From Microcoleus sp. (GTDB lineage Bacteria > Cyanobacteriota > Cyanobacteriia > Cyanobacteriales > Microcoleaceae), in the NCBI GenBank assembly GCA_042408215.1, contig JAYFMW010000005.1:352001-416000 (forward strand): a stretch of DNA of 64,000 nucleotides, read 5' to 3'. A model generated the notes under the pieces. The model saw nothing but the letters and a program-made list of their open reading frames with translations, searched no databases and was not told the DNA's origin. Positions 11,572-19,707 of the stretch are shown here, one piece after another. The position numbers and the translations under genes were made by a program. Position 1 is the stretch's first letter; each line of letters opens with the position of its first letter.

Positions 11572-11898
11572 GGTTGATTAACAGTCAGACTTTTTCTGAC
11601 ATTTGCTAACAATCACTTACATTGGCCCGAGGTCTTTATGGCACTGTAGAATGAATTTAGCCGCTCGGATTTAGGTGAAAAACCTTGGTAGTAAGCAACC
11701 TCTATCTAAATAAGTTGCCTCTACAGTATCAAAGCAAATAAAATCAAGATTGGCTAAATGCGGTCACGCGAAAACCAAGCTGAACGCTCATAGTACAAGT
11801 GCTTGTAGAGATTTCTACGGGCATTGGTTGATACGCCTTAGTTGAGAACTGAGCTCAACTTATGTATTTGTTAGCAAACGTTAGCAAAAAAGTATCGG
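11572..11898 (+). mobile_element. Non-autonomous IS607-derived element, 327 bp, copy 1
   Basis: Matches 18534..18860 except for 1 nt; bounded by GG; starts GGTTGA; last ~100 nt homologous to the right end of the IS607 at 15943..17689. Confidence 0.88.
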
Positions 11899-11942
11899 TA
11901 ACAATCAAGAGCAAAAATCAGCGAAAAGTAATTAAGGATGCC

Positions 11943-13100
11943 ATGTCACTTTCAACTGCACAACCCGCTCTCCTAGTCCTGGCTGATGGTACTGCTTACC
12001 GCGGCTGGTCCTTTGGCGCTGACGCCACCGTCGTCGGCGAAGTAGTATTCAATACTGGGATGACGGGCTATCAAGAAGTCTTGACCGATCCCAGTTATTC
12101 GGGACAAATCGTAACTTTTACTTATCCAGAATTGGGTAATACCGGGGTAAATCTCGAAGATGAAGAGTCTTCGCACCCCCATATTCGAGCAGCGATCGCT
12201 CGTAATGTATGCAGTCGCCCTAGCAACTGGCGATCGTCCCAATCTCTGCAAAACTACCTCAAACACTACAATATCCCAGGAATTTACGGCATCGACACCC
12301 GCGCCCTGACTCGCAAAATTCGCACGGTGGGAGCAATCAACGGTGGTATTTCTACCTCGATTCTCGACCCTGCTGAGCTTTTGGAGCAAGTACAAGACGC
12401 GCCCAGCATGGACGGGCTGAATCTTGTCCGGGAAGTCACCACCCGCGAGGTTTATGAGTGGTCTGAAGCCACAGAATCGGTTTGGGAATTTAGTCCGACA
12501 GTCAAACCAGCCAAGGGTGAAATGTGGACAGTAGTGGCGATCGATTTTGGGATCAAGCGCAATATCCTGCGGCGTTTGGCCAGTTATGGCTGTCGGGTAA
12601 TTGTTGTCCCCGCTGACACAACGCCAGAGGAAATCCTCAAGTACAACCCGGATGGCATTTTTCTCTCCAACGGCCCTGGAGACCCCTCGGCGGTAACGGA
12701 AGGGATTGAGACTGCGAAAGCTTTGTTGAAGTCGGACAAACCTGTGTTCGGTATCTGCATGGGACACCAAATTTTGGGACTTTCCTTGGGTGCGGAAACT
12801 TTTAAACTCAAGTTTGGCCACCGGGGATTGAATCACCCGGCCGGTTTAACTCAGCAGGTGGAAATTACTAGCCAAAATCACGGTTTTGCGATCGACCCCG
12901 ATTCGCTAGTTCCCGAACTAGAAATTACTCACCTCAACTTGAACGATCGCACCGTAGCAGGATTGAAGCACAAAACCCAGCCCCTGTTCTCAGTCCAGTA
13001 CCACCCCGAAGCCAGCCCCGGCCCCCATGATGCCGACTATTTGTTCGATCGATTCGTCCAGTCGATGCGAGAAAATCAGAAAGTAGTCATTAGTCAGTAG
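11943..13100 (+). CDS. carA: Carbamoyl-phosphate synthase small subunit
   Basis: [28 protein letters not shown] and QYHPE; true start 11943 because the ORF-track extension runs into the mobile element. Confidence 0.97.
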
Positions 13101-13288
13101 TCATTGGTCAATAGTCAGCGGTCATTATCCTAGCAAGCTGTTTGTGCAGATAACCGATCGCCAATAACCAATAACTAATGACTAATGACCAATGACTAAT
13201 GACCAATAACTAAAAACAGTAGACAAAAAGCCAAAAATATCGTATAATGAATCCTCGACTTTAAGCAATATCTAGCTAGGAGGGTGTC

Positions 13289-13657
13289 ATTTCTGAGTCA
13301 TTGACCCTGACCGTTAGCCTCAGAGGCACTCGCGAAGTCAGGAATAACTATCAGCTATTTCGCCTGACGGGCCTACTGGACGCTTTTTCCGAAGCAACTT
13401 TTCGGAAGGTACTGACCAAATGTATCGACGACGGCCCAAAACACGTAATTTTGGACTTGTCTAAAATTGACTTTGTGGATAGTTCAGGCTTGGGTGCACT
13501 TGTGCAACTTGTCAAAAAAGCCCAAAGTTTGGAGGGGACATTGCAAATTGTTTCCAATCCCCGCGTAACTCAGACTGTTAAACTGGTTCGCTTAGAGAAA
13601 TTTTTGTCTTTGCAGCTGAGTGTGGATGCGGCCGTAAACAACGTCAAGGATGCTTGA
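13289..13657 (+). CDS. STAS-domain anti-sigma factor antagonist (start ATT 13289 or TTG 13301)
   Basis: DLSKIDFVDSSGLGAL motif; AGGAGG at 13278. Confidence 0.88.
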   Translation: MSESLTLTVSLRGTREVRNNYQLFRLTGLLDAFSEATFRKVLTKCIDDGPKHVILDLSKIDFVDSSGLGALVQLVKKAQSLEGTLQIVSNPRVTQTVKLVRLEKFLSLQLSVDAAVNNVKDA

Positions 13658-13812
13658 CGCCAAAGTTGATTAAATTCGCTATCCGGTTCTCAACGCTGGA
13701 TAGCAAATTTTTATGTTGGTGCTGGTAAAAAAGTATCGCTATAATTAATCAAGTGATGAACTAACTAAGTGACTTGACAAACCAAGCTGTGCGGAATTTT
13801 TATTAAAAAAGT

Positions 13813-14268
13813 ATGTCGCCGATCGCAGATGACCAGCCAAAGCTGAGTCTCATTGATATCAGTTTAAATCGATTACATCCTGGGATGGCGACATCAGCAG
13901 AAATAGAAAGGCTTTCGCCAGCAGCGTGGGCGTATTTGGGAGATGCAGTGTACGAACTCCATGTTCGGAGTTCGTACCTAGTGCCGCCCAAAAAAATGCA
14001 AGCTTATCACGAATTGGTGGTGGGACAAGTACGAGCCGAAACTCAAGCGCGTCACTTGCGATCGATCTCTCCCCACCTGAACAGCACAGAATTAGCAATT
14101 GTCAAGCGCGGCCGCAATGCCGCCGCCGGCCGTTCCAAACGAGCCGATCCCGATTTATATCAGCAAGCAAGCAGCTTAGAAACCTTGGTGGGATACTTAT
14201 ACCTCACCAATCCAGAAAGATTAAGGCAACTTCTGGCACTTTTAGAACTTGACACTCAAACAATTTAG
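13813..14268 (+). CDS. mrnC: Mini-ribonuclease III
   Basis: AYLGDAVYEL, KRGRNA and LETLVGYLYL; upstream of rlmB. Confidence 0.85.
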   Translation: MSPIADDQPKLSLIDISLNRLHPGMATSAEIERLSPAAWAYLGDAVYELHVRSSYLVPPKKMQAYHELVVGQVRAETQARHLRSISPHLNSTELAIVKRGRNAAAGRSKRADPDLYQQASSLETLVGYLYLTNPERLRQLLALLELDTQTI

Positions 14269-14409
14269 CAGTAGCCAGTTGTGCACCTCGATCGATTAAA
14301 AACTCCAGCACAGCCAACCTCAAAAAACCTTGCGGTAGATTGGGAGTTACTCCCGAACCGCCAGAAACATAACTATTCCCGAAGCAACTCACTCCTCGAT
14401 CGTCAAAAA

Positions 14410-15948
14410 ATGAGAAAATTTCCTAAACCAAACCCCCAACGTCAACAGCGCGACAGCAAGCCCTTCAAAAGCGAGAGCCGCGATGATGACTCCAGACCGT
14501 CTCTGCGTTTTGAACGGAAGCCCCGTCCCGATACTCGCGGCGTCGCCGGGCCTCAAAAGCGATCGTCCTTCGCCCCCCAATCCCAAGAAATGCCCGTGCG
14601 AGCAATTTTTAAACGCAGTGTTCAACCCGACAGCCAACCGGAACTGCGAAAAAATAATCATTTCAGAGACAGAGACAGAGACAGAGACAGCAGCCCCCAG
14701 GAATCTCGCGGCAATCATTTCAGAGACAGAGACAGCAGCCCCCAGGAATCTCGCGGCAATCATTTCAGAGACAGAGACAGCAGCCCCCAGGAATCTCGCG
14801 GCAATCATTTCAGAGACAGAGACAGCAGCCCCCAGGAATATCGCGGCAATCATTTCAGAGACAGAGACAGCAGCCCCCAGGAATATCGCGGCAATCATTT
14901 CAGCAACAGAGACAGCAGCCCCCAGGAATCTCGCGGCAATCATTTCAGAGACAGAGACAGCAGCCCCCAGGAATCTCGCGGCAATCATTTCAGCAACAGA
15001 GACAGCAGCCCACAGGAATCTCGCGGCAATTCTTACAAAAACAGAGACAGCAGCCCCCAGGAATCTCGCGGCAATCATTTCAGCAACAGAGACAGCAGCC
15101 CCCAGGAATCTCGCGGCAATTATTACAAAAACAGAGACAGTCGCCCGGTTGAGAATGCGAACACTACCGTCGTCCAAGCAGAAGCAGACACAGACATGAT
15201 TTACGGCCGCCATGCAGTGCAGGCCGCTTTAGAAGCAAACCAAGTGCTCAACCGGATCTGGGTTGTGCCACATCTGCGCTACGATCCCCGCTTTCACAGC
15301 TTGCTAACCGAAGCTAAATCCAACGGTAGCATCATTGACGAAGTGGACGATTTGCGCCTCGACTACATCACGCGCAAGGCCAACCACCAAGGTGTCGCCG
15401 CTCAAGTATCAGCCTACGAATACCTCGATTTGAGCGAACTAATCGCCAAGGCTAAATCTGCTTGCGAACATCCCGTACTCGTAGTAGCAGAAGGACTCAA
15501 CGATCCCCACAATTTAGGGGCGATTATTCGCACCGCAGAAGCATTAGGCACTCAGGGCGTAGTGATCCCGCAGCGGCGAGCCGTTGGGATTACGTCTGCG
15601 GTGAGAAAAGTGGCAGCAGGGGCATTGGAAAGCCTGCCAGTGGCTAGGGTTGTCAATCTCAGCCGCGCTTTGGAAGAATTGAAAGAGGCTGGATTTTGGA
15701 TTTACGGCACTGCTGCTGATGCCGGTCAATCGGTAGAGACAGTCAATTTCTCCGGTCCCACTGTTTTAGTTGTGGGCGGTGAATCTGACGGTTTGAGCCT
15801 TTTGATACAGCGCGGCTGTGACGGATTAGTTTCAATTCCACTCAGGGGCAAAACTCCTAGCCTGAATGTGTCCGTAGCAACGGGCATGGCTTTGTACGAA
15901 ATTTACCGCCAACGCGGGCCCAAGAAATTTCACGTACACGGAGGTTGA
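14410..15948 (+). CDS. rlmB: 23S rRNA G2251 2'-O-methyltransferase (TrmH/SpoU family) with a long repetitive N-terminus
   Basis: [23 protein letters not shown] and SLNVSVA motifs. Confidence 0.92.
14656..15143 (+). repeat. Coding tandem repeat, 45-bp unit, ten full copies plus a partial ([15 protein letters not shown])
   Basis: Contiguous units AATCATTTCAGAGACAGAGACAGCAGCCCCCAGGAATCTCGCGGC with minor variants. Confidence 0.95.
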
Positions 15949-16011
15949 CATACAGTGGTCAATTCTCTAACAATCATTCACATATGCTACCAGATGTGAG
16001 AGCGTTAGTGA

Positions 16012-16587
16012 ATGGCATACATACCGCTTAGAAAAGCAGTCGAATTTCTAGGCTTGCATCCAAACACGTTAAGGAAATACGCAGATGAAGGGCAGATTAA
16101 ATCAATCAAAAATGGAGCAGGGCAACGCCTTTACGACGTTGAGTCTTACCAAAAAGATGGAAGCATCTGCTCAGTCATCTGCTACTGCCGAGTCAGTAGT
16201 GCCAAGCAAAAAGACGACCTTGCTAGACAAGTCGAGTTCATGCAACAGCGATACCCCGACTCGGAAATCATCCAAGACATCGGCTCTGGACTTAACTTCA
16301 AAAGAAAAGGACTGCAAGCCTTACTGGTCAGATTTATGCGCGGAGATCAGCTCACGATTGTTGTTGCCTGTAGAGACAGGCTCTGCCGATTTGGATTTGA
16401 ACTTTTCGAGTTCATGGCAAAACAAAACGGTGGAGAAATCGTGGTTCTCTCAAATCCTGTTCACTGCCCAGAATCCGAACTTACAGCCGATCTTCTTGCC
16501 ATCCTTCACGTCTTTAGTTGCCGAATGCACGGACTCAGGAGCTACCGCCAGAAAATCAAAGAAGATCCGACTATTCCTAAGCCCTGA
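16012..16587 (+). CDS. tnpA: IS607 serine recombinase transposase (N-terminal MerR-like HTH)
   Basis: HPNTLRKY HTH, YCRVSS, DIGSGLNFKRKGL, DRLCRFGF and ELTADL. Confidence 0.95.
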   Translation: MAYIPLRKAVEFLGLHPNTLRKYADEGQIKSIKNGAGQRLYDVESYQKDGSICSVICYCRVSSAKQKDDLARQVEFMQQRYPDSEIIQDIGSGLNFKRKGLQALLVRFMRGDQLTIVVACRDRLCRFGFELFEFMAKQNGGEIVVLSNPVHCPESELTADLLAILHVFSCRMHGLRSYRQKIKEDPTIPKP

Positions 16588-17665
16588 GCAAAAAGCAATA
16601 CTCAAACAATGCTTTGGAGTTAGTCGTTACGTCTACAACACAACTATCAAATACTTGCAGCAACCAGACACTAAAGCCAATTGGATGTCAATCAAAACGG
16701 ACATACTTAATGGATTACCTGATTGGGCAAAGCCTGTACCATTTCAAATTAAATCTATTGCCATTAAAGATGCTTGCACGGCTGTCAAAAAAGCCCAAGC
16801 AGATTTCAATAAAACTGGCAAAATTTGGAGCGGCAAATTTCGCAGTCGCAAAGACACAAAACAGTCTCTTTATATTCCGAAGTCTGCCCTTGGGGCGAAA
16901 GGAATTTATCATACAAAATTGGGTCAGTCAAAGCTGAAAGAGGCATTACCCAAAGGCTTCAGTGATGGACGATTGACCCTTGCCTATGGCGAGTATTACA
17001 TTGTTGTATCTGAAGAAGTGCAACCACGTCAGACCGATAACCAAGGTCGCGTGGTTGCCTTAGACCCCGGTGTTAGAACGTTCATGACTTTCTTTTCTGA
17101 GTCATCCTATGGATGGCTTGGGAATGATTCTAATCTTTGGATTCAAAAGTTTTGTTTCAGGTTGGACAAGTTGATCTCAAGGATGAGTAAAACGAATAGC
17201 CCGCAACGCAAAAGACTCAAAAAAGCAGCGGACAGATTAAAGTCTAAGATTCAACATCTTGTCAAAGAGTTGCATCACAAGACTGCTAAGTTTTTAGTTG
17301 ATAATTTTGACGTGATATTACTTCCATCGTTTGAGTCTTCTCAGATGGTGAGCAAGTCACGTCGCAAGATTCGCTCTAAAACTGTTCGTCAAATGCTTAC
17401 TCTGAGTCATTATCAGTTCAAAAAGCATCTAGAGTGGAAAGCTTGGGAGCAAGGCAAAGTTGCTTTAACTTCTATCAACGAAGCTTACACTTCAAAGACT
17501 GTTTCATGGACTGGAGAAATCAAAAAGATTGGTGGTAGCAGAACGATTAAAGATTCTGATGGAAATCAGATGAACCGGGATCTAAATGGTGCTCGTGGGA
17601 TTTTCCTTCGGGCATCGGTTGATACGCCTTGGTTGAGATCGAATCTCAACTTATGTATTTGTTAG
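16085..17665 (+). CDS. tnpB: IS607 TnpB with Fanzor-like rearranged RuvC (start uncertain; frame overlaps tnpA)
   Basis: KIRLF...VSRYVYN, ALDPGVRTF, ILLP at RuvC-II, NEAYTSKT and RDLNGARGI. Confidence 0.9.
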   Translation: MKGRLNQSKMEQGNAFTTLSLTKKMEASAQSSATAESVVPSKKTTLLDKSSSCNSDTPTRKSSKTSALDLTSKEKDCKPYWSDLCAEISSRLLLPVETGSADLDLNFSSSWQNKTVEKSWFSQILFTAQNPNLQPIFLPSFTSLVAECTDSGATARKSKKIRLFLSPEQKAILKQCFGVSRYVYNTTIKYLQQPDTKANWMSIKTDILNGLPDWAKPVPFQIKSIAIKDACTAVKKAQADFNKTGKIWSGKFRSRKDTKQSLYIPKSALGAKGIYHTKLGQSKLKEALPKGFSDGRLTLAYGEYYIVVSEEVQPRQTDNQGRVVALDPGVRTFMTFFSESSYGWLGNDSNLWIQKFCFRLDKLISRMSKTNSPQRKRLKKAADRLKSKIQHLVKELHHKTAKFLVDNFDVILLPSFESSQMVSKSRRKIRSKTVRQMLTLSHYQFKKHLEWKAWEQGKVALTSINEAYTSKTVSWTGEIKKIGGSRTIKDSDGNQMNRDLNGARGIFLRASVDTPWLRSNLNLCIC

Positions 17666-17689
17666 TGAAAGTTAACGAAAAAGTATCGG
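17588..17689 (+). ncRNA. Predicted TnpB omegaRNA (right-end RNA) scaffold; guide predicted 3' of 17689
   Basis: Hairpins GGTTGAGAT/ATCTCAACT and TTTGTTAGT-GAAA-GTTAACGAA covary with the mini copies; GATAC can pair with terminal GTATC. Confidence 0.65.
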
Positions 17690-17766
17690 TTGAAGCTGTA
17701 AATAACTAAGGCGTAGGCTTGGCCTGCATCACTCTGGAAAAAACGTCAAATACATTACAAAAGCAC

Positions 17767-18124
17767 GTCAGTAACTCCGCCTTAAAGGGACTGAGCTTGC
17801 ACTTCGACTCCGCGAGCGTGACCGTTGAGTTTCGTCAAGCTATACTGACCAGCTATCGTCTTAACTGACTCCGTTATTTGAGTCACGACACTCCTTGAAT
17901 GCGACGCTAGTTTTGGGCTCAGTCATCTGCAATTAAACAGTTCTCAAGTCACGCTTTACAGTGTTGCAGGTTGAAAAAGCTCTTATAACAAAGGCGCGCG
18001 CGAAAATTACCCGCAAGGGATTCGGAGACAACCAGATCTCCACTCTGGGGCAATCATACCCCTCCACCCCCACCAGGGGAATCACTCTTGACTGAAGTCC
18101 CCCTGAGAGTTTCTCTCTCTTTCT
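17767..18124 (+). mobile_element. Non-autonomous IscB-type element carrying an orphan HEARO/omegaRNA
   Basis: P1 GTCAGTA/TACTGAC-CAG; CGTTA, GTCACGACAC, TAAACA, AGTG, AAGC..TAAC and ATTACC blocks in the same order as the iscB leader; right-end hairpin CTCTTGACTGAAGTC..GAGAG. Confidence 0.75.
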
Positions 18125-18162
18125 CTGAAGCCTCTGAGTTTCCCACTTACCGAACTTTTTTT

Positions 18163-18441
18163 ATGAAAGAACTCTTGATTAGCTTACTCAACTTTTTCGG
18201 ATTGGCTTGGTGGGTTGAAGTTAAAACTTCAACGCCGCGGTGCATTTACTATTTTGGCCCGTTCATGAGGGCTAAAGAGGCGGAAGCTGCAAAAGCAGGA
18301 TATATAGAAGACATCGAAAATGAAGGTGCTCAAGGTATTAAGGTTTTGATTCAACGCTGCAAACCGATTGATTTGACGGTTGCAGAAGATTTGGGAAAGC
18401 TTGGTGACGGAGGGATGTTGCCTGTTTTTAGCGGCCAGTAG
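18163..18441 (+). CDS. DUF1816-like cyanobacterial protein
   Basis: WWVEV.T..P.C.YYFGPF motif. Confidence 0.8.
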   Translation: MKELLISLLNFFGLAWWVEVKTSTPRCIYYFGPFMRAKEAEAAKAGYIEDIENEGAQGIKVLIQRCKPIDLTVAEDLGKLGDGGMLPVFSGQ

Positions 18442-18533
18442 CGATGGTCGAGCAGAAGTTTTGAGTTTTGAGTGAGCGAGTTTTGATTTTTAAATTCAAA
18501 ACTATTGACTTTTGGGCGATTAGTTGCTTCGGG

Positions 18534-18860
18534 GGTTGATTAACAGTCAGACTTTTTCTGACATTTGCTAACAATCACTTACATTGGCCCGAGGTCTTTA
18601 TGGCACTGTAGAATGAATTTAGCCGCTCGGATTTAGGTGAAAAACCTTGGTAGTAAGCAACCTCTATCTAAATAAGTTGCCTCTACAGTATCAAAGCAAA
18701 TAAAATCAAGATTGGCTAAATGCGGTCACGCGAAAACCAAGCTGAACGCTCATAGTACAAGTGCTTGTAGAGATTTCTACGGGCATTGGTTGATACGCCT
18801 TAGTTGAGAACTGAGCTCAACTTATGTATTTGTTAGCAAACGTTAGCAAAAAAGGATCGG
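18534..18860 (+). mobile_element. Non-autonomous IS607-derived element, 327 bp, copy 2
   Basis: Same sequence as 11572..11898 but ending GGATCGG instead of GTATCGG. Confidence 0.88.
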
Positions 18861-18870
18861 AACTCAAAAC

Positions 18871-19707
18871 TTAAGACTCGTAATTCCCAACTACCTGCGG
18901 GAGGGTATCGATCCATCGATCGATGTCTGCGAGTACCCGATCGGGAATTTCCCAGGGGAACAAGTGGGCTGTATTGGGATAGCACTGCCACTGACTGTTG
19001 TGGAGGTGGCGGGCTGTTTCTAAGCTCGATTGTGAGGTGATGTGCCGATCGGCCTCTCCGGCCAGCACTAAGCAGGGACAATGAATGTCGCCGAGGTGGG
19101 CAAGCCGATCGTATCGGGCCCTCAGAGCGGTATTTAGGGCCTTGGTAGCCCTGCGGTCGGTCTGTAGGTAGGCGGGGGTACCGGCGGCGGCTAGGTAGCG
19201 GTAAGGGGTGGCTGTATGCTGCTGTATCAAGTAGCGAAAGAGCGATCGCTTGCCAAAAGTATCAATATTCCACTGCCACCCCGGTATCGCCCAATTGATA
19301 ATTCCGGCTAAACCGGTGTATAGGTGATCTGGCCAAGAGATGGGAGGGTGACTTCCTGTTGGTTTGGCGGCGGACGCGAGTAGAATCAAACCTGTGACTC
19401 GCTGGGGATATTTCATGGCTAATTCGAGGGCTAAAATCCCTCCTAAAGACCATCCGATTACCAAACATCGATCGATTCCAAATCGATCGAGAAGTGCTTC
19501 TAGATCGAGGAGGTGGTCGGTCATTTCAAAGGGGACAGAGGTGCGGCTGTTGCCGTATCCGCGTAAGTCTGGGGCGATCGTTTGGAAGCGTTTTGATAGG
19601 TGTTCTGTGAAGACGGACATACAGTAGCCGGAACCTGGATGGCCGTGCAAGCAGAGAATGGGAAATCCTGTTCCTTTGACAGAAACGCTGAGTTTTGTGT
19701 GTGGCAT
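18871..19707 (-). CDS. Alpha/beta fold hydrolase
   Basis: LHGHPG, PDLRGYG, GWSLGG and AHLFPWE. Confidence 0.9.
   Translation of the reverse strand: MPHTKLSVSVKGTGFPILCLHGHPGSGYCMSVFTEHLSKRFQTIAPDLRGYGNSRTSVPFEMTDHLLDLEALLDRFGIDRCLVIGWSLGGILALELAMKYPQRVTGLILLASAAKPTGSHPPISWPDHLYTGLAGIINWAIPGWQWNIDTFGKRSLFRYLIQQHTATPYRYLAAAGTPAYLQTDRRATKALNTALRARYDRLAHLGDIHCPCLVLAGEADRHITSQSSLETARHLHNSQWQCYPNTAHLFPWEIPDRVLADIDRWIDTLPQVVGNYES

Follow-up and report, generated by a model that had tools for sequence, protein, structure and literature searches.

PATE-like elements of the IS200/IS605 type lack protein genes and encode omegaRNAs in G. stearothermophilus (PMC10055086), and the standalone omegaRNAs of OMEGA systems function in trans, as summarised in PMC10691335. 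TnpB itself processes the omegaRNA 5' end from its own mRNA (PMC10278001), and TnpB cutting of vacated sites favours repair from the occupied copy for both IS605 and IS607 elements (PMC10055086, PMC13565253). In ISXfa1 and CboIStron, two published IS607 systems, the insertion site and the target-adjacent motif (TAM; GGG and TGGG, respectively) agree, the element's own CGG end is spared, and a pseudoknot is required for TnpB activity (10.1101/2023.08.09.552727, 10.1101/2023.11.20.567912). Here, we describe short IS607 derivatives without protein genes, called minis below, in a 64,000-nucleotide stretch of Microcoleus sp. DNA (assembly GCA_042408215.1, contig JAYFMW010000005.1, positions 352,001 to 416,000; hereafter the window, whose numbering is used throughout). 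The minis combine an omegaRNA scaffold with a structured 5' RNA domain. They probably act as standalone guide-RNA cassettes, relying on borrowed TnpA for movement and on a TnpB of the pro-Fanzor type for re-homing at their own empty sites.

Results

Two minis occupy GG-core insertion sites

Mini copy 1 (11572-11898, plus strand) lies 44 nt 5' of the start codon of carA (11943; gene assigned by Pfam) and is co-oriented with it, and mini copy 2 (18534-18860, plus strand) lies between a DUF1816 gene and a convergent hydrolase gene. The copies align over 327 nt with a single difference, T11893 versus G18855, and both carry GG at each terminus, as does the full IS607 at 15943-17689. An earlier reading of the window from its letters alone (the sequence-only reading) had described this GG-bounded pair correctly; it had also proposed looking for empty sites and further copies and building covariance models. 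In G008, a close relative, uninterrupted single-GG sites correspond to copy 1, copy 2 and the full IS607, with no target duplication; all three are therefore GG-core insertions that did not duplicate their target. Neither mini holds an open reading frame (ORF) of at least 60 aa in the ORF list of the window, and the TnpA plus TnpB of an autonomous IS607 are absent from both, which makes them non-autonomous.

The left end of copy 1 (11572-11621, plus strand) resembles the left ends of full elements and consists of the GG core followed by CTNACA motifs at 11596, 11606 and 11616, a spacing of 10 bp. These motifs are likely TnpA binding sites, and phased motifs have been reported for IS1535 (PMC6188088). 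Internal similarity between the left and right ends is weak, with short end motifs standing in place of terminal inverted repeats. Membership among the PATE elements of IS200/IS605 was ruled out, as the ends correspond to those of IS607 elements and have a GG core rather than being of the Y1 type.

Two purines precede the left GG in all 12 elements of the window's genome that have a left end (scored by eye) and in 22 of 22 further such loci from a GTDB scan, among which two pairs represent one insertion each, seen in two genomes. RRGG is the insertion preference of minis and full elements and, by analogy with ISXfa1 and CboIStron, would also be the TAM. The RGG-type TAM proposed by the sequence-only reading thus stands as a purine-GG preference, with the consensus extended to RRGG and describing insertion.

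The right end is an omegaRNA scaffold with flank-derived guides

The last 102 nt of the mini align with the right end of the full IS607 at 83% identity (BLAST, E 4e-22), in agreement with the alignment of about 100 nt noted earlier. On the basis of this alignment and of covariation, the omegaRNA scaffold was placed at 11799-11898 (plus strand). It comprises predicted hairpins at 11799-11825, 11840-11860 and 11867-11888 and a terminal CGG, while GATAC at 11830-11834 is complementary to GTATC at 11892-11896 and would form a pseudoknot. Two of the hairpins and the GATAC-GTATC pairing had already been named from the letters and keep their pairing in the alignment, as does the 11799-11825 hairpin, which had gone unmentioned. 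Over 14 ends (nine minis and five full or remnant elements), 96% of cells are paired, against at most 42% in slid controls, and compensatory changes occur at 9 of 27 pairs overall and at three of the five pseudoknot pairs. Helices located 65-100 nt inside the right end are among those that compensate.

The T>G change of copy 2 at 18855 (GGATC) introduces one mismatch into the pseudoknot and could weaken it. It had been regarded as peculiar to copy 2 and as possibly silencing it; the mini on contig C12 carries the same GGATC variant. The predicted guides are the flanks at 11899-11916 for copy 1, with the length taken by analogy with ISXfa1, and at 18861-18878 for copy 2 (both plus strand). In a search of the genome, each matches its own site only and has no second target. 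In a mini at L006:1730-1760, the first scaffold hairpin is present in the version of the full elements, which suggests that minis and full elements may recombine.

A structured 5' domain was found only in gene-less elements

Mini positions ~55-215 have no counterpart in full elements by alignment. This region holds a promoter-like site and a 5' structured RNA domain, both of which the sequence-only reading overlooked. The putative promoter (11622-11652, plus strand) consists of a -35-like TTG at 11622 and a -10-like TAGAAT at 11647-11652, and encloses a tnpA start remnant, ATGGC, at 11638; the left end here resembles that of a sister full element. Distant minis found without a filter on the -10 box also show a promoter-like box, for example TTGACA-17-TATCAT.

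The 5' domain spans ~105 nt (11655-11759, plus strand), as delimited by folding and covariation, and is predicted to form a three-way junction with a long closing helix P1, a T-loop hairpin (11674-11684), an extended helix P3/P4 (11686-11731) and an A-rich junction. The whole predicted mini RNA has a folding z of -3.05. In an alignment of 36 sequences from the genus, 96% of cells are paired, with compensatory changes at 8 of 39 pairs. Among 12 sequences from four families, compensatory changes reach 11 of 16 pairs and one helix is inverted; none of 500 shuffles scored as high, and slid controls pair at most 48%.

Rfam returned no match for the domain, with 0 matches at E<=10 on window 11640-11910, RAGATH-18 and HEARO included. 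A weak RAGATH-18 match (E 0.085) lies outside the element, in the flank downstream of the second mini lineage described below. Identity with a group I intron or IStron was rejected, with no Rfam intron match for minis or relatives at E<=1 or E<=10. A likeness of the T-loop to hairpins of the cobalamin riboswitch or group II introns found no support in Rfam. By eye, the T-loop hairpin also resembled a hairpin close to the 3' end of tnpB, but alignment did not reproduce this. When 25 loci were searched at E<=1, the 5' domain was found in three minis and in no full element, with one further 14-bit match at chance level. It is present in no full element of the window's genome, where a 25-bit match on contig C19 falls inside a coding gene and was discarded as chance. 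Among the elements searched, the domain is confined to those that lack protein genes.

The minis form a family across cyanobacteria

BLAST found 10 minis in the window's genome: seven complete copies (two in the window, two on C6 and one each on C12, C30 and C20), two without a left end and one on C1. Because five of them are 98-100% identical, movement appears to have been recent. The C1 copy lacks most of its middle, including most of the 5' domain, and has a tnpB element inside; it was considered as a full-length parent and rejected, being a mini into which an unrelated tnpB element has inserted. The copy at C6:690973 lacks part of the scaffold. By eye, the G000 minis at C6:423252, C12:36441 and C30:227765 seemingly sit in or beside IS605-like right ends or HEARO-like sequence. 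At G000 C1:43332-45400, ~250 nt that may be an older, eroded mini come after an IS607 from a different subfamily and close with a degenerate right end of the mini type.

Beyond this genome, an exact-pattern scan of GTDB returned 70 loci, almost all of them titled Microcoleus or Oscillatoriales; IS607 genes were absent from their surroundings, and there was one weak TnpB match of 23%. Covariance models extended the family to four further families (G138, G116; G312, G253, G341; G101), so that the domain is known from five cyanobacterial families in all. Copies in the other families have the same order of parts, no protein gene and compensated scaffold helices, eroded copies such as L156 excepted. 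Outside the genus the domain is rare, occurring in 2 of 97 genomes in one search and in 1 of 136 in another. In a metagenome scan, 36 of 70 matches were real and none scored as a new lineage, and a plasmid search gave no match. A complete mini with the 5' domain is present at L210:351-736 on a 78-kb viral contig, the other viral match being due to chance, and viral carriage is a possible route of spread.

Since a covarying 5' domain recurs in five families and is absent from the full elements searched, the minis appear to be an old self-standing lineage that travels with one pro-Fanzor IS607 subfamily, and not fresh deletions of the local IS607. The sequence-only reading had proposed a sister element as the direct parent. 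The right end agrees with this, its last 42 nt being 95% identical to the C8 copy versus 84% to the local element over the last 58 nt, as does the left end; a long-lived lineage with a 5' domain of its own does not.

A second lineage is fixed in one locus

Among 61 same-genus genomes, 54 carry the domain and 27 a cognate TnpB (E<=1e-75); 23 genomes have both, 31 the domain only, four TnpB only and three neither. A cognate TnpB occurs in six of the eight genomes with at least three copies, the other two being 74% and 83% complete, and in 17 of the 46 with one or two copies; in all these counts, kin are not independent and repeats are possibly unassembled.

Many single copies belong to a second lineage, which is 68% identical to the window minis and, in the loci examined, occupies one locus, usually 5' of a gene of the Npun_F0813 family. 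An IS605-like right-end remnant follows such loci (for example L020:1484-1745). The promoter and 5' domain of this fixed lineage are nearly invariant, and its pseudoknot and terminal CGG decay, the CGG being changed in 9 of 34 copies. Folded alone, one 5' domain of this lineage does not exceed shuffled sequences in stability (z -0.02). The fixed lineage is a candidate for domestication of an omegaRNA gene rather than of a protein.

The full IS607 is a candidate helper

The full IS607 between the minis (15943-17689, plus strand) was delimited by sequence, Pfam and its empty site in G008. It sits in the last codons of a SpoU-family gene (15940-15948), where GGTTGA is both the target and the left end of the element, so that the stop codon of the gene is restored. 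Its tnpA (16012-16587, plus strand) encodes a serine recombinase of the IS607 family (NF033518 above cut-off; Pfam). The tnpB open frame (16085-17665, plus strand; translation, NF040570) has its nuclease domain from about 16556. The TnpB contains a DPG RuvC-I motif and the RuvC-III Asp, lacks the zinc-finger cysteines and has a shifted glutamate, which lies six residues ahead of the zinc-finger position. Judged by these motifs in the translation, it appears to be of the pro-Fanzor type, for which the DPG motif and the shifted glutamate are described as criteria (10.1101/2023.08.09.552727). The window's genome has four full elements with the same ends, three of them with a stop-free tnpB.

The tnpB frame is open across most of tnpA (16085-16587), and homologs have open frames of about 450-590 aa compared with a domain of ~370 aa, which suggests that a dual-coding N-terminal extension may be conserved. 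The SpoU-family methyltransferase has tandem 12-codon repeats in its own N-terminal extension (window 14650-15150). Directly beside the full IS607, a HEARO RNA (Rfam RF02033, 96.9 bits) occupies 17767-18010; no IscB-sized ORF follows it in the ORF list, and it is a standalone guide RNA of the IscB type.

Mini sequences in RNA libraries

Fourteen RNA runs contain 33-49% of the words of a 701-nt stretch. Contigs cover the mini in 4 of 4 RNA runs, without showing RNA ends and with a DNA origin possible. Because one such contig spans 11587-11961 without a difference, the copy-1 insertion exists in that run. In run X3, mini contigs have depths of 117 and 277 versus 21 for carA, a difference that multi-copy collapse or DNA could explain.

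Discussion

We propose that the minis are guide-RNA cassettes served in trans. They move via the GG core into RRGG sites, presumably through the TnpA of full copies. An internal promoter of the sigma70 type would then yield an RNA of ~245 nt plus flank. The 3' ~100 nt, whose fold is indicated by covariation, would load the cognate TnpB in trans, and the flank would act as the guide. As the target (RRGG plus guide) exists only at the empty allele, the occupied end reading TCGG, cutting would favour repair from the occupied copy and keep the mini in place. Because TnpB normally trims the omegaRNA from its own mRNA, an element without the gene would need its own promoter. The 5' T-loop domain may replace the tnpB mRNA from which the omegaRNA is normally processed, most likely by holding the transcript in a stable fold until it is bound and trimmed by TnpB produced at another site. 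The trans-mobilised guide cassettes of the sequence-only reading are borne out as far as the non-autonomous state, GG-core mobility, intact scaffold and flank-derived guides are concerned; use of TnpB in trans is what we infer. The proposal is favoured by the three stop-free cognate tnpB copies of the genome, by guides that match their own sites alone and by the more frequent presence of a cognate TnpB in genomes with at least three copies.

Several observations weigh against this explanation. In 31 of the 54 domain-bearing genomes there is no cognate TnpB at E<=1e-75; the near-closed genomes G064 (1 contig) and G041 (6 contigs) keep the mini RNA without one, and no related TnpB was found at E<=1e-20 in G312, G101, G016 or G007. 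Conservation of the terminal hairpin is no evidence for an RNA function, as repeats that TnpA probably binds overlap with this hairpin. A consensus promoter scan did not flag the site at 11622-11652, and one of the sets in which the promoter-like site appears had been selected for a -10-like box. The mobile lineage taken by itself shows weak covariation of the 5' domain (3 of 28 pairs, a score reached by 139 of 500 shuffles), and all compensatory counts are inflated by common descent and do not represent independent events on a tree. Finally, contigs from the RNA libraries extend into the left end, 5' of the predicted start, and may be DNA.

A more tentative reading, which we regard as possible yet considerably less probable, takes the 5' domain as a new RNA module that made the omegaRNA a gene in its own right, capable of capturing pro-Fanzor TnpB in trans. 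This gene would since have been domesticated, with one copy fixed across most of the genus and bearing a short, conserved guide-like tail, and would serve the host, as a leader or regulatory RNA, also where the nuclease has been lost.

Somewhat more doubtful is the view that the 5' domain is a TnpB-independent, cis-acting leader that regulates or stabilises the downstream mRNA. Minis would then spread because their promoter and leader allow insertion ahead of host genes, and the omegaRNA would be of secondary importance. Copies lie just 5' of, and co-oriented with, carA and Npun_F0813 genes, and co-oriented distant copies closely precede genes that, judged from their sequences, we take to be rplC-like (L172:1459-1727), clpP-like (L206:1517-1738) and mrp/apbC-like (L154:1419-1754). 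The domain also persists without a cognate TnpB; the fixed lineage keeps the promoter and domain while the pseudoknot and CGG decay, and at L153 and L094 insertions break the right end and leave the domain intact. However, there are also copies within repeats, within other mobile elements or in the ends of convergent genes. Moreover, in all five families a scaffold whose helices are compensated comes after the domain, bar eroded copies such as L156, and the fixed-lineage copy was not found in the window's genome.

It is unlikely that the RNA serves a different partner for which the 5' domain is required, be it a TnpB of another clade, a derivative without nuclease activity or a protein of the host, and that the right-end likeness reflects only a shared transposase. 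Retention of the domain in genomes without cognate TnpB would fit such a partner, as would the tail of the fixed lineage, in which the first 6 nt past the end are identical in 34 of 34 copies and about 13 nt survive where the remaining flank is replaced. Yet no partner gene is linked, the 70 GTDB loci giving only the weak 23% TnpB match, and the scaffolds of the minis resemble those of full elements in the same genomes. Likewise, RRGG plus the conserved 9-mer of the tail occurs 4 times in five genomes versus 4 in the control, which is chance level, and the only target of the tail found in more than one genome is a single coding motif, present in two.

Least likely of all are passive deletion derivatives resembling miniature inverted-repeat transposable elements, in which only the DNA ends matter and RNA features are relics: the ends do carry TnpA-type repeats, the left ends retain the first tnpA codons, expression is only predicted, and the C1 and C6:690973 copies have lost most of the 5' domain and part of the scaffold, respectively, but ~105 nt without a match in the full elements searched nevertheless preserve a fold in which 11 of 16 pairs show compensatory changes between families, and the scaffold helices 65-100 nt inside the end compensate as well.

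With a conserved structured RNA domain that full elements lack, the minis provide a direct test of how a guide RNA that is normally cut from its nuclease mRNA can live as a separate gene. Should the 5' domain stabilise the RNA or help to load it, the minis would offer a natural design for trans-expressed guides of pro-Fanzor TnpBs, with a predicted RRGG preference; these TnpBs are the proposed ancestors of eukaryotic Fanzors. The literature passages covered here hold no account of the 5' domain, of such cyanobacterial minis or of a fixed, nuclease-independent copy.

Like the PATE-like elements (PMC10055086), the minis have no protein genes, keep both transposon ends and carry an omegaRNA for use by TnpB in trans, a use that is presumed here. 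However, PATE-like elements use Y1 hairpin ends, whereas the minis have GG-core ends for a serine recombinase and add a promoter-like site and a 5' T-loop domain that is conserved in five families. The standalone omegaRNAs described for OMEGA systems (PMC10691335) are likewise mobilised scaffolds without an effector that co-occur with effector loci; in the minis, the presumed partner is a pro-Fanzor IS607 TnpB, and one lineage is fixed and persists where no cognate nuclease was found. With ISXfa1 and CboIStron (10.1101/2023.08.09.552727, 10.1101/2023.11.20.567912), the minis share a CGG-ending scaffold, three stem-loops, a pseudoknot to the bases before the guide and a G-rich insertion site unlike their own end. 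The RNA of those elements overlaps tnpB, with a 144-nt scaffold in ISXfa1, whereas the mini RNA is predicted to start independently and to be ~245 nt long, and insertion of the minis follows an RRGG consensus. Group B IStrons (PMC13565253) similarly hold a structured RNA inside IS607 ends, terminate in CGG and insert after purine-GG, but they carry a group I intron, whereas the minis have no Rfam intron match and a domain of ~105 nt that starts ~80 nt inside the left end. Guide-only minis are already known for IS605; what is new here is the 5' domain and the fixation of one lineage.

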